Positions 12,667 to 25,159 are shown, numbered from the stretch's first letter. The stretch is 43,740 nucleotides of DNA from Dehalococcoidia bacterium (GCA_036564075.1 DATCLE010000224.1:1-43740); one strand, 5' to 3'. Notes: a model not told the origin generated them from the sequence alone. Made by a program: numbers and translations.

Positions 12667-13016
12667 CGGGCCGTCCCGGCAGGGGGACGGTGCCCCGCGC
12701 GAACCGGGAGGCGGAACCGCCGGACGCCGGCGGACGCCTCCCGGAGCCGTTGCAGGAGTGGGACGGGCGGGGAACCCCGCCGTGCCCGCCGCCGGAAGCC
12801 CCTCATGGCCCCCGTGGCCGGGGGGCCGCGGAACAACCGGGGACCTCACCCGGGAGGCGCGAATCCAGCGAGGCGACGCTGGTCCAGGCGGGCGCCTCCC
12901 TCACCGCCCTGGGGAGCAAGGGAGCGGCGCCAGAGGGCGCGGCCCGGTGGCTGGCGGGACCCGGCGCCGCCGGGACGGCGCTCCGGGCGGCGTGGTGACC
13001 CTGCGGGAGGCAGACG

Positions 13017-13241
13017 GTGGTACAGGTACGGGTGGACGAAGCGGCGAGGCAGGAGTACCGGCAGGCCTACGACCGGTGGATGGAGGACCTGGCGCGGGTC
13101 CACGCGGTCTTCCTAGAGGGGGAACGGATGGACCCCCTGCACCTGAAGGCGCTGCTGACGCGCGAGAGCAAGTCCAAGGAGCGGTACGACGCGGCCCGCC
13201 GGCGGCTCCTGGGGCTGCCGGATCCGGAGGAGGCCTCCTGA
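13017..13241 (+). CDS. Hypothetical small helical protein (74 aa)
   Basis: GTG 13017 sits 6 nt after GGGAGG. The sequence is charged, amphipathic and non-repetitive (VDEAARQEYRQAYDRWMEDLARVHAVFLEGE...). Codons are GC3-rich. No family recognised. Confidence 0.45.
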   Translation: MVQVRVDEAARQEYRQAYDRWMEDLARVHAVFLEGERMDPLHLKALLTRESKSKERYDAARRRLLGLPDPEEAS

Positions 13242-13251
13242 ACCGGCGCCG

Positions 13252-14568
13252 CTACTCCTCGATGAAGTAGGCGGCGCAGGCCCGGTCAATGGACTCCCGG
13301 TCCACGCGCGGCGGCACCCCCTCGAACCGGGCGATGTCCAGCATCAGCTCGATGATGTCGCGGGCGTGGCAGCCCCGGAACTCCCGCCCCTGGGCCACGT
13401 AGTACGTCTCGATGAGGTACTGGAGGGCGTCTTCCTCCATGGGCACGCGCATGCGCTGCGCCGTGCGCCGGAAGATCTCCTCGAACTCGCTCCGCGTGGG
13501 GTTGGGGATCAGCACCTTGTGCCGGATGCGCCGCAGGAACGCCTCGTCCCCCAACTGGCGCGGCGGCATGTTGGTGGAGAAGACAATGAGGCAGTCGAAG
13601 GGAATGGAGACGGTCTCGCCCGTCTGGAAGCTCAGGTAGTCCCACCCCTTCTCCAGCGGCACGATCCAGCGGTTCAGCAGCTCTTTGGGCCGGATGAGCT
13701 GACGGCCGAAGTCGTCCACCAGCAGCACCCCATTGTTGGCCTTCATCTGGAGCGGCGCCACGTAGAACTTGGAGGTCTGGTCGTAGAGGAGCTCCAGGTT
13801 CTGGAGGGTGAGCTCGCCGCCGGCCACCACCATGGGCCGCTGCGACTTGATCCAGCGGCGGTCCCGTCGCCGCTCCACGCCCGCCGTCAGTCCGCCGTTC
13901 CCGTCGCCGTTCTCCTCCTCGGGGCTCTCCACGGCCACGTGGATGCGGGGGTCAAACACCCGGATGATGTGGCCGTTCGCCTCCACGGCGTAGGGGATGA
14001 GGACGTTGCCCGGCAGCATGCGGCCCAGCCGCTCCGCCACCGTGCTCTTGCCGTTGCCCGGCGCGCCGAAGAGGAGCACGGAGCGGCCGGAGTTGATGGC
14101 GGGGCCCAGGGTCCGCAGGGTGCGGCGGCTCAGCACCAGGTCCCCCAGCGCCGCCTCCAGCTCCCGGGGCGAGAGGGCCGCGCCCCGCACCGACTGGTAC
14201 CGCACCGCCTCCACGTAGACCCGCAGCGGCACCGGCGCCGGCCCCACGTAGGCGCTGCGCTCCATGACCTCCGCCACCTTGTCCGCGCCGCGGGAGGTGA
14301 GGGTGTACCGGTAGCTCTGCTCCGAGGTGCCGGAACCGGGCAGGATCTCGCAGTACTGCTCCCGGCGGAGGAACTCCAGCCCCTCCTGGATCACGCGGAA
14401 GGGGAGGGCCAGGAAGTCGGCGATGTCCCGGCCGGCGGCCCGGCCCTGGAGGTAGACCGCCTTGAGGATGAGGTCCGCTACCAGCGAGGGTTCCAGGCCC
14501 GTCTCGGCGATGCTCTGCGGCGCCGGGATGAAGGGCACGTCCCGGGGCGGGCTCTGCGTGGTGGTCAT
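13252..14568 (-). CDS. AAA+ ATPase (classical AAA-like core) with an N-terminal winged-helix-like domain; function unknown
   Basis: Walker A LLFGAPGNGKSTVAERL, Walker B VLLVDDFGRQ, sensor-1 LIVFSTN, and the Arg-finger region EAFLRRIRHKVLIPNPTRSEFEEIF. The first 170 aa or so (GRDIADFLALPFRVIQEGLEFLRREQYCEI) look wHTH-like. ATG 14568 is preceded by AGGAG. The track ORF up to 15129 is a spurious extension. Confidence 0.85.
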   Translation of the reverse strand: MTTTQSPPRDVPFIPAPQSIAETGLEPSLVADLILKAVYLQGRAAGRDIADFLALPFRVIQEGLEFLRREQYCEILPGSGTSEQSYRYTLTSRGADKVAEVMERSAYVGPAPVPLRVYVEAVRYQSVRGAALSPRELEAALGDLVLSRRTLRTLGPAINSGRSVLLFGAPGNGKSTVAERLGRMLPGNVLIPYAVEANGHIIRVFDPRIHVAVESPEEENGDGNGGLTAGVERRRDRRWIKSQRPMVVAGGELTLQNLELLYDQTSKFYVAPLQMKANNGVLLVDDFGRQLIRPKELLNRWIVPLEKGWDYLSFQTGETVSIPFDCLIVFSTNMPPRQLGDEAFLRRIRHKVLIPNPTRSEFEEIFRRTAQRMRVPMEEDALQYLIETYYVAQGREFRGCHARDIIELMLDIARFEGVPPRVDRESIDRACAAYFIEE

Positions 14569-14882
14569 GAACGGCCGCTCCTGGTGGCGTCTGCTTCCGT
14601 GCACGGGCGGGCATGCGGGCGCCGGGCGCCCGGCGCGGCGCACGCCCTCCCTCCACTCTCGATCATCGGCAGGCCCACGCCGATGGAGAGCGTCCGGGGG
14701 CCGGGCCCGGCCCCAGCGTACGCCGTCCCCTTCTCCCAACGCATGAGGGGTTTCCCCCATTGCAGCGCTCCCACGCCCTGATCCCCCGGGGTGCAGGCCC
14801 TGATGCGTCCTGCCGATAAAAGAAACATGGGGGAGCGCCCCGACGTTAACGTGGGCGACGCGAGGAAACCGCCATCGGGGGC

Positions 14883-15716
14883 GTGGAGACCGGGACATCG
14901 TGCATGAGCGAACGTGACCTGCTGGCCCAGGCACCGCAGCGGGACTGGCCCGCCTTCGACGCGTTGTTCCGGCAGACGGTCCACCCTGTCCACCGCTTCC
15001 TCTTCGGCCTGTGCGGGGAACGGCTCCACGCGGAGCTGCTGACCCTGCGCACCTTTGAGGCGGCGTGGCGACAGGGGATCCCGCACCTGACGCACCTCTC
15101 CTCCCCGGCCTGGGTCCTCCGCCTGGCATGGCAACTGGTCCGGCGGGAGGCCGGGCCGCAGACGCCGTCGGAGGCGCCGGAGGAGGTGGAGCCGGCGGTC
15201 TGGCGGGCGCTGCTGGGGCTCAGCCGGGAGACCCGGGCGGCGCTGCTGCTGCGGGTGGGCGAACGGCTGCCGGCCGGCGCGGTGGCCCAGGTCACCGGCA
15301 CGGACGTGGCCCGGGTGCGCGCCGCCGTCTACCACGGGGCGCTGGCGGGGGCCGGGCTCCCGCCCAACGGGCTGCCCGCGCAGCAGTGGGAGGCCTTTGA
15401 ACGGTTGCTGGACGGGGCACTGGCGGAGCCGGAGGGGGAGCCCCCGGCGGACCCGCTGGCCCGCGGCGTCCGGGCCGTGGCCCGGGCCTATGACCGGCTG
15501 CGGGCGGACCCGGCCTTTGTGCTGCGGACCAAGGTCAAGCTGGCCACCGCCGCCAAGGCGGAGGCGCACGGAAAGAACGGCAACGGCCGGTTGCCCCGGC
15601 GTGGAAACAACGGTCGGGGACCGGCGTTTCTAGAGGTACGAAATCGGGAGCGCGGGGCGCCGGGGAGCCGCCCGGCCGGCGGCCTTCCGGTCCGGCGGAC
15701 CCGCACCGGCAACTAG
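14883..15716 (+). CDS. ECF-type sigma-70 family factor with a C-terminal extension of about 120 aa
   Basis: The region 2-like segment (FDALFRQTVHPVHRFLFGLCGERLHAELLTLRTFEAAWRQ...WVLRLAWQLVRRE) aligns by eye with RpoE region 2. The region 4.2-like HTH is LSRETRAALLLRVGERLPAGAVAQVTGTDVARVRAAVYHG. The start is uncertain between GTG 14883 and ATG 14904. The C-terminal tail is low-complexity near its end. Confidence 0.65.
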   Translation: METGTSCMSERDLLAQAPQRDWPAFDALFRQTVHPVHRFLFGLCGERLHAELLTLRTFEAAWRQGIPHLTHLSSPAWVLRLAWQLVRREAGPQTPSEAPEEVEPAVWRALLGLSRETRAALLLRVGERLPAGAVAQVTGTDVARVRAAVYHGALAGAGLPPNGLPAQQWEAFERLLDGALAEPEGEPPADPLARGVRAVARAYDRLRADPAFVLRTKVKLATAAKAEAHGKNGNGRLPRRGNNGRGPAFLEVRNRERGAPGSRPAGGLPVRRTRTGN

Positions 15717-15774
15717 CAGCACCCGCCGGGGGTGGACGGCGCCGGCCGTCGGCGGCCCGGCGGGCACTGCTAGG
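15714..15774 (+). terminator. Long imperfect stem-loop that includes the sigma gene stop codon
   Basis: CTAGCAG (15714-20) pairs with CTGCTAG (15768-74). CCCGCCGGG (15723-31) pairs with CCCGGCGGG (15757-65). GACGGC (15736-41) pairs with GCCGTC (15746-51) around the loop GCCG. No U-tract follows. Confidence 0.4.
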
Positions 15775-15947
15775 GCCCACAAAGGGGGTGAGGCCGTAGC
15801 AGGACGGAAAGACAGCACTGTGGAACCGGTCGGTACTGGGAGACCGGTCGGCGCGGGTGCCGGCCGGGAGCCATGGCGGATGTCGGACCGTGCGAGTACG
15901 GCCAGGGACGCCATGGAAGAGGAAGCACGCACAAAGGAGGCACAACC

Positions 15948-16169
15948 TTGATCGCTCTGGTGAACAACACGCTGCTCCGGCTGATGGCGGCCGTCCAGGC
16001 CCGGAAGATGCAGGTGGAGGAAGAGGGCCAGACCCTGGTGGAGTACGCGCTGATCATCGCGCTGGTTTCCATCGGCCTCATCCTGGCCCTCACCGCGCTG
16101 CGGGACGACATTGCCGCGGTCTTCGACGAGATCGGCGCGGCCCTGGGTGGTGCTGGCAGCAGCAGCTAA
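15948..16169 (+). CDS. flp: Flp family type IVb pilin
   Basis: The processing and hydrophobic motif EEEG/QTLVEYALIIALVSIGLILAL matches the Flp G/XXXXEY signature. The TTG 15948 start sits 7 nt after AAGGAGG. Alternative in-frame ATGs are at 15984 and 16008. The track ORF from 15873 is probably too long. Confidence 0.8.
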   Translation: MIALVNNTLLRLMAAVQARKMQVEEEGQTLVEYALIIALVSIGLILALTALRDDIAAVFDEIGAALGGAGSSS

Positions 16170-16190
16170 GCCGCACCGGCGGCAAGCACG

Positions 16191-16218
16191 GGGAGGCGGG
16201 GCTCCGGCCCCGCCCTCC
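16191..16218 (+). terminator. GC-rich hairpin immediately after flp (probable partial terminator or attenuator)
   Basis: GGGAGGCGGGGC, loop tccg, GCCCCGCCCTCC. The stem is 11-12 bp with one bulged C and begins 22 nt after the flp stop. Confidence 0.5.
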
Positions 16219-16278
16219 GGGGGCGTGCCTCACCCGCCGGTGGGGCCCGCCCCCGGGGGTAGTCAACCGGAGGCAGGC

Positions 16279-16698
16279 ATGGAGATCCAGCGCGTGATCC
16301 GGCTCCTGCGGCGCGGCGAACGGGGCCAGAGCCTGGTGGAGTTCGCCCTGGTGCTGCCGCTGTTCCTGATCCTGGTCTTCGGGATCGTGGACTTCGGCAA
16401 CGCCCTCCAGGACTACATCACCCTCAGCAACGCCGCGCGGGAGGGCGCCCGCCTGGGCGTCACCGGCGTGCCGGAGGCCACCATCCGCCAGCGGACGCTG
16501 GACACCGCGGCCGCGGTGGGCGGGCCGGTGACGGTCACCGTAACCAACGCCTGCGGCCAGGTGGGCCAGTCCCTGCGGGTGCAGGCCCGATACACCTACC
16601 AGCCCATCACGCCGCTGGGCTCGTTCATCGCGGGCATCAGCGGCGGCATCCCGCTGTCGGTCTCGGCGGACATGCGCCTGGAGAAGACCGGCTGCTGA
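16279..16698 (+). CDS. tadE: TadE-like pseudopilin
   Basis: N-terminus RGERGQSLVEFALVLPLFLILVFGIVDFG, the TadE-like domain signature. ATG 16279 follows GGAGGCAGGC. Confidence 0.8.
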   Translation: MEIQRVIRLLRRGERGQSLVEFALVLPLFLILVFGIVDFGNALQDYITLSNAAREGARLGVTGVPEATIRQRTLDTAAAVGGPVTVTVTNACGQVGQSLRVQARYTYQPITPLGSFIAGISGGIPLSVSADMRLEKTGC

Positions 16699-16719
16699 CC
16701 TGGTGAGGAGGGTCCGTCC

Positions 16720-17817
16720 ATGAGCAGGTTCGCCAAACTCCACCGCGGCGAGCGCGGGCAGGTCCTGGTGCTCACGGCCATCACCTTCGTGGCGCTCCTG
16801 GGCATGACCGGGCTGGCTACGGACGTGGGCATGCTCATGAAGACCCGCAGGGACCTGCAGAACGCCGCGGACGCCGCGGCCTTCGCGGCGGTGCAGGAGC
16901 TGCCCGGGTGCCACAACCGGACCGCCGCAGAGGGTGCGGCGGTCCAGTGGGTGGAGAAGAACCATCCCGTGGCGGAACCGGCAAAGCAGATCAGCGTGAC
17001 GGTCGATAATTCCGGTGGGTACCCGTGCGATACGGTGCGGGTGACGGTGCGGGACACGTCAAACGTGTTCTTCCTGCGGGCGCTGGGGGTCGCATCGCCG
17101 GAGGTGGACGCCACGGCGGCGGCGCGGATCACCAGCCTCCAGGGCACCAACCGGCTGATGCCTTGGGGCCTGACCCGGGACAACAGCGACTGCCTGAACA
17201 CGGGCACCAACCCGCCCACGCCGAAGTTCGGCTCTAGTTGCACGGTGAAGGTGGGTGCGGGCGACGGCAGCAGCGGCGACTACGGCGCGCTGGACTTCGA
17301 CGGCAACGGCGGCGGGTCCAGCGAGTACCGGGAGAACATCATCGACGGGACCACGGAGCGGACGTACCGCGTTGGGGACCGGACGGACACCCTGACCGGC
17401 AACCGGACCGGCCCCACGGACGAGGGCATCGACACCCGGCTGGACGGGGAGACCGAAGGCGACAACGCCGCCTGCGACAAGGATGGGGACGGCGACCACG
17501 AGTTCTGGGAGATCTTCACGGACCTGGGGGCGGGCCGGCAGCCGCGCTACATCGTCAACGAGGCGTGCCAGGACAGCCCGCGGCTGGGCGTGGTCCCCAT
17601 TGTGGACCAGATTAACTCGCCGCAGCAGTCCACCATCCTGGGCTGGGCCCTCATGTACCTGGAGGGCTACAAGTGCGTGGGCGGCGGCGGCAACTGCATC
17701 GGCAAGGGCCACTGGGAGGTCCGGATGACCATGGTGGACGCCATCTGGTCGGACCTGGACGGGATCTTCGGGACCTTCAAGCCGGGGACGCCGTCCCGGC
17801 GGGAGCTGATCCAGTAA
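16720..17817 (+). CDS. TadG-like / Tad_N family pilus assembly protein
   Basis: N-terminus HRGERGQVLVLTAITFVALLGMTGLATDVGMLMKTRRDLQNAADAAAFAA is typical of TadE/G-like Tad_N domains. The acidic DGETEGDNAACDKDGDGDHEF segment is present and no obvious VWA domain is. GAGGAGGG lies 8 nt before the ATG. Confidence 0.75.
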   Translation: MSRFAKLHRGERGQVLVLTAITFVALLGMTGLATDVGMLMKTRRDLQNAADAAAFAAVQELPGCHNRTAAEGAAVQWVEKNHPVAEPAKQISVTVDNSGGYPCDTVRVTVRDTSNVFFLRALGVASPEVDATAAARITSLQGTNRLMPWGLTRDNSDCLNTGTNPPTPKFGSSCTVKVGAGDGSSGDYGALDFDGNGGGSSEYRENIIDGTTERTYRVGDRTDTLTGNRTGPTDEGIDTRLDGETEGDNAACDKDGDGDHEFWEIFTDLGAGRQPRYIVNEACQDSPRLGVVPIVDQINSPQQSTILGWALMYLEGYKCVGGGGNCIGKGHWEVRMTMVDAIWSDLDGIFGTFKPGTPSRRELIQ

Positions 17818-17859
17818 CCGCACCCGGAGGGACCCGGGGGAGCGCAGCAAAGGAGAACA

Positions 17860-18705
17860 GTGGGTATGGCTCGAAGTGCATCGCGCGCGGCGGGTGTCCG
17901 GTCCAACAGGAGCATGCTCTTGCTGGCACTGCTCCTGGGCCTGATCAGCGCCGTGCTGGTGTTCGTCTACCTCAACCAGGCCGGCACCGCCACGGTGAGC
18001 GGCGATACGGTGCGGGTGGTGGTGGCGGAGCGGGACATCCCGGCGCGCACCCGCATTGACGCGGGGATGCTGACCACGCGGTCCATCCCCGCCGGGGCCC
18101 GGCTGCCGCAGGCCTACGTGGAGCCCAGCGAGGTGGTGGGCAAGATCGCCCGCTACCCCATCACAGCGGGCGAGCAGGTGCTGACCACCAAGGTGGCGGC
18201 CCAGGACCGCTGGCTGGGCATCTCCTACGTGGTGCCCCAGGGCTACCGCGCCATGGCGGTCCGCGTGGATGAGGTGGTGGCCGCGGGCGGCATGGTGCTG
18301 CCCGGCGACCGGGTAGACGTGCTGGCCACCTGGAGGGCACCGTCCTCCCAGGCGCAGCGGGACTCCGGCGCGGAGGCCTACGTCACCATCCTGGTGGCGC
18401 AGAACGTGGAGGTGCTGGCGGTGGCGCAGACCATCGCGGACGTGCCGCCGCCCTCCGTGGAGGACCAGGGCGACGGCTCCGCGCCCAGCGGCGGTGACCG
18501 CTCCGACGGCGTGCTGGTGCCGGACGGCCAGCCCATACCGGAGGCGGTCACGGTCACCCTGGCCCTGCGGCCGGACGACGCCCAGCGGGTGTTCATGTCT
18601 GATGAGCAGGCCGTGATCCGGTTGCTGGTGCGGCCCTTCGGCGACACCAGTGACCTGAACCTGCCGCCGATGCCGAACGACGCGGCGGCGCTCCAGACAC
18701 CCTAA
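17860..18705 (+). CDS. cpaB: Flp pilus assembly protein CpaB/RcpC
   Basis: N-terminal TM (LLLALLLGLISAVLVFVYL), then a SAF-like domain (VVVAERDIPARTRIDAGMLT...ITAGEQVL) and an RcpC-type beta-clip. The start is either GTG 17860 or ATG 17866, after AAGGAGA. Confidence 0.85.
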   Translation: MGMARSASRAAGVRSNRSMLLLALLLGLISAVLVFVYLNQAGTATVSGDTVRVVVAERDIPARTRIDAGMLTTRSIPAGARLPQAYVEPSEVVGKIARYPITAGEQVLTTKVAAQDRWLGISYVVPQGYRAMAVRVDEVVAAGGMVLPGDRVDVLATWRAPSSQAQRDSGAEAYVTILVAQNVEVLAVAQTIADVPPPSVEDQGDGSAPSGGDRSDGVLVPDGQPIPEAVTVTLALRPDDAQRVFMSDEQAVIRLLVRPFGDTSDLNLPPMPNDAAALQTP

Positions 18706-18737
18706 CCTGACGAATCTGGGCCAGAAGGGATAGCTCG

Positions 18738-19949
18738 ATGTCCAGGAACTTGCAGGTCATCATTGTGGATCAGGACGTCAACGGGCGCGCGGACCTCCAG
18801 CGCATCGTGAGCTTCGCGCACTTCGCTGTCGTTGGGGAGGCGGGGTACGGCATCGAGGCTGTCAGCCTGGCGAAGGAAGTGGGGCCGGACGTGGTCCTCC
18901 TCTCCGTGGAGGAGCCCGTGGCCCGCGCCCTCCAGACCATCGAGTCGCTGGTGGCGGCGCTGCCGGAGGTGCCCATCATCGCCTACTCGTCGCTGAGCGA
19001 CGCGGGCTCCGTCCGGCGGGCCATGCTCTCCGGCGCGCGGGACTACCTGGTGACGCCCATCCGGCCGGACGAGCTGGTCCGCTCCGTGGCCTCCGTCATG
19101 GAGCAGGAGGAGCGGCGGCGCATGCGGCTCACGGGCGAGCTGAAGGCGGTGGACCGGTCGCCCGGCGGCGCCGTGCGGGGGACGGTGATCACCGTCTTCG
19201 GCGCCAAGGGCGGCATTGGGAAGACCACCATCTCCAGCAACCTCTCCACGGCGCTGGCCCAGTGGACGGGCCAGTCCGTGGTGCTGGTGGACCTGGACAC
19301 GCGCTTCGGCGACGTGGCCATCATGATGGACGCGCCCATTGAGACCACCATTGTGGACCTGGCGCGGGACCTGGACCACGTGGACCGGGAGACGGTCCGC
19401 TCCTACCTGGTGGAGCACCCCAGCGGCGTCACCATCCTGCCGGCGCCGCGCCACCCCAGCGAGTGGCGGCACATCGGGCCGGAGCACATCGAACGGATCG
19501 TCTCGCTCCTGGCCTCGTGCTTCGACTACGTGGTGCTGGACACGCCGGGCACCTTCAATGAGATCGTGGCCACGGCGCTGGAGCTAGGCAGCCTGGTGCT
19601 GCTGGTGACCAGCATGGACCTGGCCAGCATCAAGGATACGGCGCTGGCGCTGGACATGCTCCAGTCCTGGGACTTCCAGCAGGACAAGGTGAAGCTGCTC
19701 ATCAACCACGTGAACGCGGCCAACACCATCCGCGAGGACGACGTAGCCAGCGCCCTGGACTACGACATCTTCTGGCGGATCCCGTACGACCCTACGGTCT
19801 GCAACACCACACAGCTAGGCCAGCCGATGGTCATCAGCAAGCCGGGGTCCCGGGTCTCCCAGAGCCTCATCGACCTGGCGTGCACCATCAGCGGCGCCAA
19901 GCGACCGAAGATCCAGAAAGGGCTCCTGGGGCGGCTGATGAGCCGCTAG
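18738..19949 (+). CDS. cpaE: CpaE/TadZ: atypical receiver domain fused to a MinD/ParA-type ATPase
   Basis: Deviant Walker A FGAKGGIGKTTISSNLS. The N-terminal receiver-like fold lacks the phospho-acceptor Asp (PDVVLLSVEEP) and the conserved Lys (DYLVTPI). Confidence 0.85.
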   Translation: MSRNLQVIIVDQDVNGRADLQRIVSFAHFAVVGEAGYGIEAVSLAKEVGPDVVLLSVEEPVARALQTIESLVAALPEVPIIAYSSLSDAGSVRRAMLSGARDYLVTPIRPDELVRSVASVMEQEERRRMRLTGELKAVDRSPGGAVRGTVITVFGAKGGIGKTTISSNLSTALAQWTGQSVVLVDLDTRFGDVAIMMDAPIETTIVDLARDLDHVDRETVRSYLVEHPSGVTILPAPRHPSEWRHIGPEHIERIVSLLASCFDYVVLDTPGTFNEIVATALELGSLVLLVTSMDLASIKDTALALDMLQSWDFQQDKVKLLINHVNAANTIREDDVASALDYDIFWRIPYDPTVCNTTQLGQPMVISKPGSRVSQSLIDLACTISGAKRPKIQKGLLGRLMSR

Positions 19950-19974
19950 GGCATGTGAGAGCAGGGACGCGACC

Positions 19975-21510
19975 ATGAGCGACTTGGGTTCCTTCCGCAA
20001 CAGCCGCTTCGGCGTGGGGCCGGGCTTCGAGCCGCGGCGCGGCCGGGAGGGGGCGCCGCCCCCGCCGCTCCGGCGCCAGGGGCCGCCCGTGCCGCCCGCC
20101 GGGCCGCCCTACGTGCCCCCGGAGGAGACGCCCCCCGGCGGGGCGCCGCCCTCCGGCCAGCAGCCCGCCCCGCCGCCGCCGGCGCCGGAGCCCCCGCCCC
20201 GACCGGTCGGGGCGCGGCCCGGCATGCGGGTGCCGGACGGGCTGGACGACCTGAAGGTCCGCATCCACCAGCGCCTCATTGAGGACCTGGACCTGGACCG
20301 GCTCCAGGGCCTGGAGCCGGAGCGCGCGCGGGAGGTCCTCTACAACGCCATCCGCACGCTGCTGACGGCGGAGGGGGCCAACGTGCCCGGCGTCCTCCGG
20401 GACGAGCTGGTGAAGGCCGTGGCGGACGAGGTGCTGGGCCTGGGCCCGCTGGAGCCGCTCCTGGCGGACCCGTCCATCACGGAGATCATGGTGAACGCCC
20501 CAGACGAGGTCTTCTACGAGCGGGAGGGCAAGCTGGAGCGTAGCGCCATCCGGTTCCGGGACGCGGCCCACGTCATGCGCATCATCGACCGCATCGTCTC
20601 GCCGCTGGGGCGGCGGGTGGACGAGTCCTCGCCCATGGTGGACGCCCGGCTGCCGGACGGCTCGCGCGTGAACATCGTCATCCCGCCGGTGGCGCCCAAG
20701 GCGCCCTCCATCAGCATCCGGAAGTTCCGGCAGGACAAGCTGAAGATTGAGGACCTCATCAACGTGGGGAGCATGACGCAGGAACTGGCGGACTTCATCA
20801 ACGCCTGCGTCAAGGGCAAGCTGAACATCCTCATCTCCGGCGGTACCGGCACCGGTAAGACCACCCTGCTGAACGCGCTCTCCGCGGCCATCCCCAACGA
20901 CGAGCGGATCGTCACCATTGAGGACCCCACGGAGCTGAAGCTCCAGCAGGAGCACGTGGTGAGCCTGGAGGCACGGCCGCCCAGCATTGAGGGCAAGCAC
21001 GAGATCACCCAGCGGGACCTGGTGCGGAACGCCCTCCGAATGCGGCCGGACCGCATCATCGTGGGCGAGGTCCGCGGCTCGGAGGCGTTCGACATGCTCC
21101 AGGCCATGAACACGGGCCATGAGGGCTCCATCAGCACCATCCACGCCAACTCGCCGCGGGACGCGCTGGCCCGGCTGGAGAACATGGTGCTCATGGCCAA
21201 CCTAGACCTGCCGGTCCGCGCCATCCGGGAGCAGGTCTCCTCCGCGCTGGACCTGATCATCCAGGTGTCCCGCCACAGCGACGGCGGCCGGCGCGTGACC
21301 CACGTGACGGAAGTGGTGGGCATGGAGGGAGACACCATCACGTTGCAGGACATCTTCCTCTTCTACCAGGAGGGGGTGGACCCGGAGGACGGGAAGATCC
21401 TGGGCCAGTTCCGGCCCACGGGGATCCGCCCCACCTTCATGGAGAAGCTGGAGCGGAACGGGATCCACCTCCCCAATGAGGTGTTCGGCGCCGGGAGGTG
21501 GGTGGCATGA
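19975..21510 (+). CDS. cpaF: CpaF/TadA type IV secretion-family pilus ATPase with a Pro-rich N-terminal extension
   Basis: Walker A ISGGTGTGKTTLLNAL, Asp/His boxes RIVTIEDPTELKL and VGEVRGSEAFDMLQAMNTGHEGSISTIHANS. The first 85 aa or so are Pro/Gly-rich. Confidence 0.92.
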   Translation: MSDLGSFRNSRFGVGPGFEPRRGREGAPPPPLRRQGPPVPPAGPPYVPPEETPPGGAPPSGQQPAPPPPAPEPPPRPVGARPGMRVPDGLDDLKVRIHQRLIEDLDLDRLQGLEPERAREVLYNAIRTLLTAEGANVPGVLRDELVKAVADEVLGLGPLEPLLADPSITEIMVNAPDEVFYEREGKLERSAIRFRDAAHVMRIIDRIVSPLGRRVDESSPMVDARLPDGSRVNIVIPPVAPKAPSISIRKFRQDKLKIEDLINVGSMTQELADFINACVKGKLNILISGGTGTGKTTLLNALSAAIPNDERIVTIEDPTELKLQQEHVVSLEARPPSIEGKHEITQRDLVRNALRMRPDRIIVGEVRGSEAFDMLQAMNTGHEGSISTIHANSPRDALARLENMVLMANLDLPVRAIREQVSSALDLIIQVSRHSDGGRRVTHVTEVVGMEGDTITLQDIFLFYQEGVDPEDGKILGQFRPTGIRPTFMEKLERNGIHLPNEVFGAGRWVA

Positions 21511-22481
21511 CGCTGGTTCCTATGTTGGCGGCCCTGACGGTGGCGGGCGCCGTGGTCTGCTTCATCCTGGCCATGGTGGGCCGGGGGGAGCGGGAGCAGG
21601 CGCTGGAGCGGCTGCTGGGTGCCCACGGTGTGGGCGCACCGGGGGGCGGCTCCAGCTTCCAGCAGATGTCCGTGGCGCTGCGCCGGCGCTCCATGAGCGC
21701 GCTGCCGGTGCTGAACGCCCTGCTCGCCCGCAGCGAGTGGGCGGAGCGCGTGGCGCTGGACCTGGAGCGCGCCGAACTGCGGCTGAAGGTGGGCGAGTAC
21801 CTGCTGATCCGCGGGCTCTTCGCCTTCCTGGCGGGCATGGTGACCCTGTTGCTGAGCCAGGTGCTGCTGCTGGGCCTGGTGGTGGGCGTTGCTGCCTACT
21901 TCCTGCCGCCTTTCTACCTCCGGCGGCGCCGTCAGCGGCGGATGGACCGGCTGGACCGGCAGCTCCCGGAGTTCCTGACCCTGGTCTCCAACGCGCTGAA
22001 GGCGGGCTTCGGGCTCATGCAGGGGCTGGACAACGCGGCGGATCAGCTGGACCCGCCCATCTCCGTGGAGCTGCGGCGCACCCTGCGGGACATCGCCATC
22101 GGCGCCAGCGTGGAGGACGCCCTCACCGCGCTGAACGACCGGGTAGGCAGCAAGGACCTGGACATTGTGGTCACGGCCATCCTGGTGCAGCGCACCGCGG
22201 GCGGCAACCTCTCAGAGGTGCTGGACACCACGGCGCACACCATCCGGGAGCGGGACCGCATCAAGGGCGAGATCAAGACGCTCACGTCCCAGCAGATGCT
22301 CACCGGCTACGTGCTGGGGGTGCTGCCGGTGGGCATGGCCGTCCTGCTGGCCGTCATCAGCCGGGAGTACATGGAGCCCCTGTTCACCACCACCCTGGGC
22401 CACATGCTCATTGCCGGCGCGGTGGTGATGGACATCATCGGCTTCGTGGTGATCCGGAAGATCCTGAACATCGAAGTCTAG
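21507..22481 (+). CDS. tadB: TadB (T2SS-F family inner-membrane platform protein)
   Basis: T2SSF motif LPEFLTLVSNALKAGFGLMQGLDNAA plus TM helices. ATG 21507 overlaps the cpaF stop (ATGA) and follows GGGAGGTG. The track start is 21498. Confidence 0.85.
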   Translation: MTLVPMLAALTVAGAVVCFILAMVGRGEREQALERLLGAHGVGAPGGGSSFQQMSVALRRRSMSALPVLNALLARSEWAERVALDLERAELRLKVGEYLLIRGLFAFLAGMVTLLLSQVLLLGLVVGVAAYFLPPFYLRRRRQRRMDRLDRQLPEFLTLVSNALKAGFGLMQGLDNAADQLDPPISVELRRTLRDIAIGASVEDALTALNDRVGSKDLDIVVTAILVQRTAGGNLSEVLDTTAHTIRERDRIKGEIKTLTSQQMLTGYVLGVLPVGMAVLLAVISREYMEPLFTTTLGHMLIAGAVVMDIIGFVVIRKILNIEV

Positions 22482-22491
22482 CGAGGCAGAG

Positions 22492-23406
22492 ATGCTGACC
22501 GTGCTCATCCCCCTGACGGTCTTCGCCACCGTGGTGACGCTGGTGACGGCGCTGAGCGGCCGCCGCCAGCCCTCGGCGCTGGAACGGCTGAACGTCTACC
22601 GGGCGTCCGCCGCGGCGGCGGAGTTGCCGCCGGAGGTGACGGATCCCTTCGCGGAGCGGATGGTGTGGCCGGTGCTGGAGGGGCTGGCGGACCGGCTGGC
22701 GGCGCTGCTGCCGTCCAGCCTGCTGGAGCGGCTGGACGAGCAGCTCACGCGGGCGGGCCGGCCCATGGGGCTGCGCGGGCTCCTGCTGCTGTGGACCGCC
22801 TCCGCCCTGGCGCTGCCGGCCGTCATCCTGCTGGCGCTGCTGGTCTCCGGGGCGGCGCTGGACAGCCTGGGGCGCATCCTGGTGGTGGTGACCATCGGGC
22901 TGGGGGCGGCGGCGCCGTACGTCTGGCTGAACGGCCGGGTGACGCGGCGGCAGCAGGCCGTTGTGCGGAGTCTGCCGGACGCCCTGGACATGGTGACCAC
23001 GTGCGTGGAGGCCGGGCTGGGCCTGGACGCCGCGCTCGCCCGGGTGGCCACGCGGACCCAGGGGCCGCTGGCGGAAGAGCTGACCCGCACGCTGCGGGAG
23101 ATCAACCTGGGGCGCCAGCGGCGCGAGGCGCTGCGGGACCTGGGCGACCGCACGGGCGTGACGGACCTCCAGACCTTCGTGAACGCCATCATCCAGGCGG
23201 AGCAGATGGGCGTCAGCGTTGGGCAGGTGCTCCGTGTGCAGTCGGACCAGATGCGCATCAAGCGGCGGCAGCGGGCGGAGCAGCAGGCGTACAAGGCGCC
23301 GGTGAAGATGATCTTCCCGCTGGTGCTGTTCATCTTCCCCTCGCTCTTCGTGGTCATCCTGGGGCCGGCGGCCATCGAAGTCTTCAGGACCTTCAGCTCC
23401 GGATGA
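22492..23406 (+). CDS. tadC: TadC (T2SS-F family inner-membrane platform protein)
   Basis: T2SSF motif LPDALDMVTTCVEAGLGLDAALARVA, and C-terminal TM helices IFPLVLFIFPSLFVVILGPA. Confidence 0.85.
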   Translation: MLTVLIPLTVFATVVTLVTALSGRRQPSALERLNVYRASAAAAELPPEVTDPFAERMVWPVLEGLADRLAALLPSSLLERLDEQLTRAGRPMGLRGLLLLWTASALALPAVILLALLVSGAALDSLGRILVVVTIGLGAAAPYVWLNGRVTRRQQAVVRSLPDALDMVTTCVEAGLGLDAALARVATRTQGPLAEELTRTLREINLGRQRREALRDLGDRTGVTDLQTFVNAIIQAEQMGVSVGQVLRVQSDQMRIKRRQRAEQQAYKAPVKMIFPLVLFIFPSLFVVILGPAAIEVFRTFSSG

Positions 23407-24648: not shown

Positions 24649-24678
24649 TTGACCCCCCTCTCCGGGCAGGCGTAGAAT
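24649..24678 (+). promoter_or_regulatory. Candidate sigma-70 promoter (TTGACC-18 nt-TAGAAT)
   Basis: TTGACC at 24649-54 and TAGAAT at 24673-78, about 40 nt before ATG 24719. The -10 and flank are shared with a copy upstream of ccdA (23850-23869). Confidence 0.45.
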
Positions 24679-24718
24679 GGGAGGGACGGGCCAGGGTGCA
24701 CGCGCGGAAGGCGGCCCC

Positions 24719-25159
24719 ATGGAGCACGAGTACGGTGCCGACCTCCGGGAGATCTTCCAGGTCATCGACTCTGCCGAGGTCCTGGTAGTCCGGTTCGCCG
24801 TCATCGAGAAGCGGCTGCTGCTGGATGCTCGAACCGGCGCGGGCGAAGGCCCCCTCATCCAGCTGGTGCCGCCGGTAGGCTCCGCCGAGGAGCGGTTCCG
24901 TCACCTCAAGGCGCTCCGGCCGTCGCTGCCGCTGCCGGAACGGATCTTCACCTTCATGTGGCCCCGGCAGGTGGAGGGGCTCCAGGCCTCCGGCGTCTGG
25001 GGCCGCATCGTAGAGCGCCTGGTGCGGGCGGGCGGCCCGGCCATGGAGGAGCGCTGCCGGGCCGTCCTCCAGGAGCTGGCCGCCGCGGAGCGGGCGCAGA
25101 TGGTGGCGGCGGTGCGCGGCGGGCCGGGCTTCAAGTCGCTCTGGGAGCGGCAGGGCTGA
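24719..25159 (+). CDS. Hypothetical protein (146 aa)
   Basis: ATG 24719. Codons are GC3-rich and the sequence is non-repetitive (MEHEYGADLREIFQVIDSAEVLVVRFAVIEKRLLLD...). No family recognised. Confidence 0.5.
   Translation: MEHEYGADLREIFQVIDSAEVLVVRFAVIEKRLLLDARTGAGEGPLIQLVPPVGSAEERFRHLKALRPSLPLPERIFTFMWPRQVEGLQASGVWGRIVERLVRAGGPAMEERCRAVLQELAAAERAQMVAAVRGGPGFKSLWERQG

Follow-up and report, generated by a model that had tools for sequence, protein, structure and literature searches.

The window analyzed in this study is a 43.7-kb stretch of Dehalococcoidia DNA with a G+C content of 72%. It contains a complete Tad (Flp) pilus locus and, upstream of the prepilin gene flp, two genes encoding an AAA+ ATPase with a winged helix-turn-helix (wHTH) domain and an extracytoplasmic function (ECF)-like sigma factor. 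The original prediction, made from the sequence alone, was that these two genes form a candidate control or accessory module for the pilus. An undescribed Tad-associated module of this kind was supported at its core by the linkage of the ATPase to Tad genes and by ECF-type promoter motifs at the locus. The proposal required revision in that the two genes were separable, the ATPase was optional and present in a minority of Tad loci, and one clade of the ATPase was not linked to Tad genes.

The ATPase gene was called on the minus strand at 13252-14568 (438 amino acids, aa), in agreement with the original prediction. An AGGAG lies 8 nt upstream of its ATG, and three close relatives share the N-terminus MTTTQ(S/T)P. 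The ECF-like sigma gene is divergently transcribed (14904-15716, plus strand, 270 aa), with the sigma2 and sigma4 regions at approximately residues 1-150 of its product. The gap of 314 nt previously given between the two genes holds for an alternative GTG start at 14883, which would yield a protein of 277 aa; ATG 14904 is the more likely start, as judged from the database gene call and from the three relatives, which begin there. The flp gene (15948-16169, plus strand, 73 aa) starts with a TTG located 7 nt after AAGGAGG, and the predicted 231-nt gap between the end of the sigma gene and this start was confirmed. Its product contained the processing-site motif G/QTLVEYALI and matched Pfam Flp_Fap at 4e-9.

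The Tad locus, in the order flp-tadE-tadG-cpaB-tadZ-cpaF-tadB-tadC (15948-23406, all on the plus strand), was supported by Pfam matches for every gene. Downstream of flp, the locus encodes a TadE-like pseudopilin (16279-16698), a TadG-like protein with Tad and Tad_C domains (16720-17817), CpaB/RcpC (17860-18705, RcpC/CpaB), TadZ/CpaE with a receiver domain and a ParA/MinD-type ATPase domain (18738-19949, REC and ParA), the secretion ATPase CpaF/TadA (19975-21510, T2SSE), and the platform proteins TadB (21480-22481) and TadC (22468-23406), both matching T2SSF. No gene for the prepilin peptidase TadV, which may be encoded elsewhere, was noticed in the region 15.9-26.3 kb, no window-wide scan for peptidase A24 having been made.

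The ATPase is a member of the AAA+ superfamily according to its Walker A, variant Walker B, sensor 1, paired arginines, and lid. The four motifs originally named were all present and were invariant or nearly so across 23 and across 81 homologs. They are GAPGNGKS (Walker A, residues 168-175, with G171, N172, G173, and K174 invariant in the 23 sequences), VDDFGRQ (residues 284-290), VFSTN (residues 329-333, with an invariant sensor-1 N333), and FLRRIRHKVLIPNP (residues 344-357, with an invariant RR at 346-347). Walker B (LLVDD, residues 282-286) is a variant of hhhhDE in which Asp replaces the usual Glu, and its DD is invariant. It is preceded by an invariant Tyr loop, FYVAPLQ (Tyr269), which resembles the pore loop or pore-loop region of Lon, and R403 in the C-terminal helical lid is likewise invariant. 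An N-terminal peptide, PFxPxPxxxxETGL, is conserved as well. The mean column identity over the 23 homologs was 65%, and no transmembrane (TM) helix was found in the window ATPase (maximum 19-residue Kyte-Doolittle mean of 1.07).

As anticipated, the ATPase could not be placed in a named family: Pfam and NCBIfam gave no family at cut-off beyond the P-loop, and no characterized family was matched. Membership of Mg_chelatase (21.8 bits, residues 152-186), NCBIfam lon_rel, and IetA was rejected because the matches were confined to the P-loop level; the IetA matches were the only ones given by PADLOC, which provided no sign of a defense system. The family itself is large, with at least 8,000 clusters at 90% identity in a word-indexed search, where the best match was 56% identical and the named matches were mostly from Dehalococcoidia or Chloroflexota. 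In an exhaustive profile search of 1.84 billion representatives, clusters at 50% identity numbered 1,160 at E<=1e-30 and 2,989 at E<=1e-10. Family members carry the JGI label 'predicted ATPase with chaperone activity'. An N-terminal FHA domain was identified in two members (P0170 and P0174) and an HDOD domain in another (P0198); such fusions suggest input from Ser/Thr phosphorylation or cyclic di-GMP (c-di-GMP)-type signaling.

The full-length AlphaFold model of the ATPase (predicted local distance difference test score, pLDDT, 78.7; predicted template modeling score, pTM, 0.69) consists of a winged helix at approximately residues 27-100, a helical linker, and an AAA+ domain at approximately residues 150-438. 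The winged helix comprises three helices and two strands (H27-41, H46-53, H57-69, E73-75, and E87-90), and the N-terminal winged helix proposed earlier was thus supported by two AlphaFold models, of the whole protein and of this domain alone. In the modeled AAA+ core, a beta-rich insertion of about 80 residues separates Walker A from Walker B, a beta-hairpin (310-314/319-322) stands immediately before the sensor-1 strand (327-332), and a helical lid closes the structure; the alpha/beta core and lid matched AAA+ structures at E<=1e-7. The best Foldseek match in the PDB was the ATPase domain of LonB from Thermococcus onnurineus (4ZPX, 7e-11; another LonB structure is 3K1J), followed by 8P49 (2e-10), and classical-clade AAA proteins (proteasome Rpt subunits, p97, and FIGL1) reached only about 1e-7. 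According to this model, the AAA+ core is LonB-like (HCLR-type) at the fold level, with the protease domain absent. The Vps4/katanin type assigned in the original prediction was not upheld, given that there was no PF00004 match at E<=0.01, that the model contains the hairpin before sensor 1 and the large insertion, and that LonB ranked first. Identity as a classical AAA protein (Vps4, katanin, or spastin) was therefore rejected, and the similarity to spastin and Vps4 was local (residues 325-387, E 6e-4 to 4e-3).

The ATPase shares with LonB the insertion between Walker A and Walker B and an aromatic loop before Walker B, and NCBIfam lon_rel touches its P-loop region. Unlike LonB, it lacks the S16 protease domain, ending at residue 438 after the lid with no Pfam Lon_C, and it has an N-terminal winged helix instead of a membrane anchor. 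Its Walker B DD is a further difference, and the sequence similarity to LonB was marginal (E 0.035-0.05). When the family profile was compared with solved structures, 8P49 ranked first (2e-5). This structure, of Pyrococcus furiosus Q8U0N8, is a hexamer solved by cryo-electron microscopy; its N-terminal domain is flexible, and no function is known for the protein (bioRxiv 10.1101/2023.06.09.544317). It shares the family-specific motifs GxVLIP...II+vFD..H and fYvAPL..+A.GG.L with the window ATPase family and differs in being archaeal and in that the alignment lacks the Walker B stretch DDFGRQ. We know of no link between 8P49 and pili.

The synteny of the ATPase with Tad genes was analyzed across genomes by running the family profile against a set in which each GTDB species was represented once. 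The best 80 of more than 597 loci were taken with 10-kb flanks, and Tad genes were identified using the window's own Tad proteins as queries. Such genes were found in 41 of the 80 loci; of the 52 that had 6 kb or more on the upstream or relevant side, 30 contained them. By our own rough estimate, about 1% of random genes would be expected to lie within 10 kb of a Tad locus. The synteny asked about in the original prediction was thus retained in five phyla (Chloroflexota, Desulfobacterota, Planctomycetota, Acidobacteriota, and Gemmatimonadota) and in several arrangements. The order tadZ-cpaF-tadB-tadC-ATPase, on one strand, was found in Gemmatimonadota, Gemmataceae, Vicinamibacterales, and one Phycisphaerae locus, and in Desulfobacca-type loci of the Desulfobacterota the ATPase gene was divergent from flp/tadE. 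In Dehalococcoidia and Chloroflexia, it was divergent from the series vWA/FHA-ECF sigma-flp-cpaB-tadZ-cpaF-tadB-tadC, in which the vWA/FHA gene was only sometimes present, and in one metagenome locus (L106) it was the first gene of the operon, before cpaB. Entire clades were Tad-linked in a neighbor-joining tree of the ATPase homologs. The repetition of this linkage in at least three arrangements and five phyla indicates selection for co-regulation or co-inheritance rather than descent of one inherited block. Additionally, no secretin gene was seen in the Chloroflexota Tad loci with the ATPase. Because the Tad-linked ATPase occurs both in outer-membrane phyla and in Chloroflexota where no secretin was seen, its partner should be a conserved cytoplasmic or inner-membrane Tad component.

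In three Dehalococcoidia loci, an aptamer of the c-di-GMP-I riboswitch type was found between the Tad operon and the ATPase gene, on the ATPase strand. These aptamers were located at L005:4082-4164 (plus strand, 39.3 bits against a gathering score of 35), L004:9159-9243 (plus strand, 34.8 bits), and L008:8933-9021 (plus strand, 27.9 bits, a GGC variant). In L004 and L005, the aptamer is followed by a small open reading frame (ORF) for a secreted product with an LPxTG/LPPAG-like sorting signal and then by the ATPase gene. No c-di-GMP-I aptamer was detected by Rfam in the whole window.

The window sigma was recognized as a divergent ECF sigma factor because of its alignment with canonical ECF sigmas and its matches to ECF structures. 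Loci from Dehalococcoidia and Chloroflexia, obtained through the ATPase-seeded scan and not through the word-based sigma search, contained a canonical ECF sigma of about 190 aa at the corresponding position (Sigma70_r2 68-69 bits, r4 45-48 bits). In hhalign, the profile of the window-type sigma aligned with these counterparts over residues 5-146 (98.3% probability, E 1e-14), and the sigma4 region aligned with sigma4 of both canonical ECFs and solved structures. Among solved structures, the profile matched Pseudomonas aeruginosa sigma-H, SigE, and other ECF sigmas at 2e-6 to 8e-6, and NCBIfam PRK12518 matched residues 5-86 at 1e-7. A linker of about 20 residues separates sigma2 from sigma4, and no other sigma domains (sigma1.1 or sigma3) were found. 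The word-based search of 5.8 billion sequences returned three close homologs, 57-71% identical and all with the C-terminal extension, and their contigs (L081-L083) retained the order in which the ATPase gene diverges from sigma and flp follows sigma. Synteny of the sigma with Tad genes was therefore borne out by these contigs and by the canonical counterparts at the same position, within Chloroflexota loci only. Since the sigma was found only there, the ATPase and the sigma are separable and do not constitute one universal module.

The extension of about 120 aa described in the original prediction, soluble and without an adjacent anti-sigma gene, was supported by hydropathy, gene context, and conservation. 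It is conserved in the three relatives, including the stretches LRADPAFVLRTKVKLATAAKAEA and NNGRGPAF, and many of its positions vary only synonymously, indicating that it is translated and under purifying selection. No TM helix was found in the sigma (maximum 19-residue Kyte-Doolittle mean of 0.97), no anti-sigma gene adjoins its gene, and neither Pfam nor the profile search matched the extension to a known domain such as SnoaL or TPR. The resemblance of QQWEAFERLLDGALAEPE to the N-terminus of anti-sigma factors, proposed earlier, was unsupported, with no Pfam zf-HC2 match and no anti-sigma structure in the profile search. ECF41, ECF42, ECF56, and other groups similarly combine a sigma2-sigma4 core with a conserved soluble C-terminal extension (PMC7826278, PMC8999054). 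The window sigma resembles these extension-bearing ECFs in the lack of an adjacent anti-sigma gene and in an AAC...CGT-type promoter motif before its own gene, and differs from them in an extension with no known domain (SnoaL, TPR) and an unusually divergent core. The main text of the ECF reclassification paper makes no mention of a pilus-linked ECF group.

A gene encoding a protein of about 640 aa lies between the ATPase and ECF sigma genes in other Chloroflexota Tad loci (L001:7474-9504, L004:6763-8781, L006:7390-9315, and others, minus strand), and is missing from the window, whose sigma bears the C-terminal extension instead. By Pfam, this protein has vWA and Big_7 domains and a weak match to the FHA-like domain (cytoplasmic), and a signal peptide and a TM segment were recognized by reading the sequence. 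It might act as the regulator of the sigma in those loci.

Both intergenic regions were aligned with those of the three close relatives, and short, highly conserved islands were found within otherwise diverged sequence. The island upstream of the sigma gene, CTGCCGATAAAAGAAACA-N-GGGGGAGCGC..CGACGTTAAC, contains an ECF-type GAAAC-N17-CGTT (14822-14847, plus strand; site 1), identified by motif search and alignment, that was conserved in L082 and L083 and present as a GTAAC variant in L081. A second motif, GAAAC-N16-CGTT (15604-15628, plus strand; site 2), falls within the 3'-terminal part of the sigma ORF, precedes flp by 320 nt, and occurs at corresponding positions in L081-L083. Site 2 and approximately 15 nt on either side were nearly invariant in DNA across all four relatives, with no synonymous changes, and the adjacent codons vary freely. 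In the whole window, GAAAC-N15-18-CGTT occurred exactly twice against 0.12 expected, and two occurrences were obtained in none of 100 shuffles. Site 1 is a candidate autoregulated promoter of the sigma gene, and site 2, inside the sigma ORF, is the likely promoter of flp and a candidate for dependence on the sigma, as judged from motif and conservation. The occurrence of GAAAC...CGTT before both the sigma gene and flp is what would be expected if an ECF sigma were autoregulated and drove the pilin gene as well. The original prediction had proposed the 15717-15947 spacer for a test of sigma-dependent transcription, and site 2 would place the flp promoter upstream of that spacer. A scan of 12900-16400 revealed no sites for sigma-70 consensus promoters. 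GGAAC-N15-19-CGGTC directly before flp was rejected as a promoter, being no rarer than chance (1 found, 0.7 expected).

Two copies of the motif CTGCCGATRA were found in the window, where 0.11 would be expected; they are inverted relative to each other, stand on either side of the divergent promoter region, and are conserved in the relatives. One copy, CTGCCGATGA (14663-14672, minus strand), lies upstream of the ATPase gene, and its inverted partner, CTGCCGATAA (14810-14819, plus strand), stands just upstream of the ECF-type promoter motif of the sigma gene. For CTGCCGATGA, both a -10-like promoter element and an operator half-site are conceivable. In distant Dehalococcoidia loci, a related GCCGAT(A/T)(A/T)T precedes the ATPase gene, and CTGCCGATRA may therefore serve as a housekeeping -10-like element and not as an operator. 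In the interval from the sigma gene to flp, the alignment also revealed a conserved block of about 85 nt (15781-15866, plus strand) that was almost invariant in the three relatives, with diverged flanks. This block contains the direct repeat ACCGGTCGG at 15825-15833 and 15843-15851 (18-nt spacing), and RNAalifold predicted a hairpin from three sequences, with one covarying pair only. The block is a candidate leader RNA or operator; it is not a known riboswitch, because Rfam matched nothing in 14400-16400 (E<=5) or in the whole window (gathering threshold).

A conserved hairpin, whose apical CCAGGCCCCGCCTCCTG is nearly invariant, was identified in other loci ahead of the vWA/FHA-sigma-flp block, on the strand of the Tad operon (L001:9626-9730, L004:9006-9110, L005:3939-4043, L006:9573-9677, L008:8806-8925, L013:9671-9775, and L057:9668-9772, minus strand). 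Five of its stem pairs showed compensatory changes, and it is a candidate cis-regulatory RNA or small RNA. It had no Rfam match, and CCAGGCCCCGCCTCCTG had 0 matches in the window at <=3 mismatches.

Taken together, we consider it slightly better than an even chance that the ATPase and the sigma form an optional accessory or control layer of the adjacent Tad pilus locus, and the ATPase is probably an unrecognized optional helper or regulator of the pilus. Most likely, the soluble ATPase would assemble into a ring, as suggested by the hexamer of its remote homolog 8P49, and would act on a cytoplasmic Tad component (CpaF, TadZ, the TadB/C platform, or the prepilin), remodeling, unfolding, or switching it with the use of ATP; the winged helix would serve as an adaptor or targeting domain. 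The fast-evolving ECF sigma would most likely transcribe its own gene and flp from the two GAAAC-N16/17-CGTT promoters, and its C-terminal extension may stand in for a separate anti-sigma factor.

Several results weigh against this interpretation, and they bear on both genes. Viewed from the Tad side, among the 80 metagenome loci whose CpaF was closest to that of the window, the ATPase was present in one, and it was found in none of the 18 that were fully flanked. The nearest Tad relatives (65-69% CpaF identity) lacked both the ATPase and the sigma, and the nearest of all (L085) had unrelated genes upstream of flp. This rarity at CpaF-seeded loci indicates that the ATPase is an optional accessory and not a core component. 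Furthermore, a clade of the ATPase consisting mostly of Anaerolineae and other Chloroflexota had no Tad genes within 10 kb. In four loci of this clade (L010, L011, L021, and L022), the ATPase gene directly follows tig-clpP-clpX on the same strand (e.g., L011:6389-11278), a position commonly taken by lon. The insertion in the AAA+ core was also poorly modeled (pLDDT 30-60 at residues 205-240 and 290-320), and the clade assignment therefore depends on a moderate model. An alternative reading is a general Lon-like chaperone or quality-control ATPase without a pilus role, whose proximity to Tad genes would come from gene-block ancestry or co-transfer. That explanation would fit the clade beside tig-clpP-clpX, the JGI name, and the absence of the ATPase from most Tad loci, and we regard it as quite improbable because the association with Tad genes arises repeatedly, in five phyla and with three or more orientations and insertion points, which argues for selection on the linkage. 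A metagenome-assembled genome with two paralogs, one Tad-linked (L057) and one unlinked (L007), also fits subfunctionalization.

Other results concern the kind of activity that the ATPase would have. The invariant DD of Walker B, in place of DE, tells against processive unfolding, since DD is encountered more often in switch-like AAA+ proteins than in processive unfoldases. The N-terminal domain modeled alone (pLDDT 78.9) matched the winged-helix proteins MarR, PadR, and AspA (E~1e-4), and its fold, being that of DNA-binding MarR/PadR regulators, allows for a DNA-binding role. The ATPase could accordingly be an ATP-dependent transcription regulator whose winged helix binds operators near the tad promoter (candidates are the inverted CTGCCGATRA copies and the directly repeated ACCGGTCGG) and whose AAA+ ring switches or remodels the promoter complex, possibly with the ECF sigma. 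The divergent regulator/target layout in Chloroflexota and Desulfobacterota, the conserved repeated motifs in both intergenic regions, the suitability of Walker B DD for a switch, and the FHA and HDOD fusions as signal input would all be consistent with such a regulator. We nevertheless consider it unlikely, as the N-terminal domain is slightly acidic in most members (family median net charge -2; HTH helices, median -1) and the wing loop GSSGxGEQ contains no basic residues, which favors an adaptor role over DNA binding. In three phyla, moreover, the ATPase gene stands at the end of the tad operon and is not divergent, Sigma54_activat (PF00158) had no Pfam match in the ATPase and no GAFTGA motif was seen, and the CCGAT(A/G)(A/T) upstream of the ATPase gene in distant loci resembles an ordinary -10 element. 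The LonB-like fold, the conserved Tyr loop, the tig-clpP-clpX clade, and the acidic winged helix instead point to action on proteins, and the FHA/HDOD fusions together with Walker B DD point to regulated, switch-like behavior.

With regard to the sigma, the score against Pfam Sigma70_r4_2 (23.5 bits) fell below the gathering score of 25.7, Sigma70_r2 was not matched, and the promoter motifs are sequence patterns and not mapped transcription starts. The sub-threshold Pfam result, together with the identity of about 33% to the canonical positional counterparts and the finding of three close homologs only among 5.8 billion sequences, would suit a decayed, non-functional ECF remnant, with the GAAAC...CGTT sites either read by another sigma or not serving as promoters. 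Decay appears very improbable in view of the conservation of the gene. The ORF was intact in all four relatives at 57-71% identity, many positions in sigma2/sigma4 and the extension varied only synonymously, indicating selection on the protein, and residues invariant with canonical ECFs were retained across sigma2 and sigma4. In addition, an ECF-type motif before the sigma gene itself is the usual autoregulatory layout.

A bolder version of the accessory-layer reading, for which we would claim distinctly less than an even chance, is that a protease-less Lon-type ring serves as a third Tad ATPase in a subset of machines from at least five phyla. Such a ring would dock on the cytoplasmic face and unfold or reset CpaF, TadZ, TadB/C, or the prepilin, providing an ATP-driven step in assembly or retraction that responds to signals, as the FHA/HDOD fusions and the c-di-GMP riboswitch neighbors hint. 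In the window lineage, it might be coupled to a dedicated, self-contained ECF sigma driving flp.

Additional non-motor P-loop ATPases are known from the type II secretion system and the MSHA pilus, where GspA/ExeA and MshM are needed for assembly in some lineages only. ExeA-type proteins are membrane-anchored, of the AAA_22 type, carry a periplasmic peptidoglycan-binding domain, and act on the secretin. These proteins provide a precedent for an accessory ATPase encoded with a type IV filament system. The window ATPase differs from GspA/ExeA in being soluble, in matching AAA_22 at the P-loop only (18.2 bits against a cut-off of 27, E 0.003), and in its family also occurring in Chloroflexota loci where no secretin gene was seen. 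CpaF/TadA (PilT/VirB11-like) and TadZ/CpaE (ParA/MinD-like) are comparable to it as cytoplasmic nucleotide-dependent pilus factors of the same locus, but belong to unrelated folds and families. The Tad component model of MacSyFinder TFF-SF includes no wHTH-AAA+ protein (PMC6668835), and the Kil/Tad-like paper mentions no such ATPase. In agreement with the original prediction, literature searches found no AAA+/Lon-like ATPase or ECF sigma dedicated to Tad loci, within a searchable literature that is incomplete.

Tad pili contribute to adhesion, biofilm formation, and surface sensing, and are thought to run on one bifunctional motor (CpaF) and the positioning ATPase TadZ. An extra, conserved, and widespread AAA+ ATPase would, if true, offer a new handle on the assembly, turnover, and switching of these pili, with the greatest impact in poorly studied environmental phyla such as Chloroflexota, Gemmatimonadota, Planctomycetota, and Acidobacteriota. 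It would also place a large AAA+ family, for which neither Pfam nor NCBIfam has a model, in a functional context for the first time; the solved but unexplained structure 8P49 belongs to that family. For the sigma, the data suggest a pilus-dedicated ECF factor with an on-board regulatory extension, and the two GAAAC...CGTT sites named above are concrete candidates for its promoters.

The remaining genes around the locus encode unrelated housekeeping functions, including a HAD hydrolase, a molybdopterin oxidoreductase, a DsbD-like protein, a beta-eliminating lyase, a P-type ATPase, and ABC transporters. Two further ORFs were noted in the window. An ORF of 74 aa (13017-13241, plus strand), which matched neither Pfam nor NCBIfam and lacked a counterpart among the 80 related loci, is convergent with the ATPase gene, with stops 10 nt apart and a third-position G+C of 0.93. 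The other, of 168 aa (24653-25159, plus strand) and without a Pfam match, lies between the DsbD-like and beta-eliminating lyase genes and has a coding-like composition.

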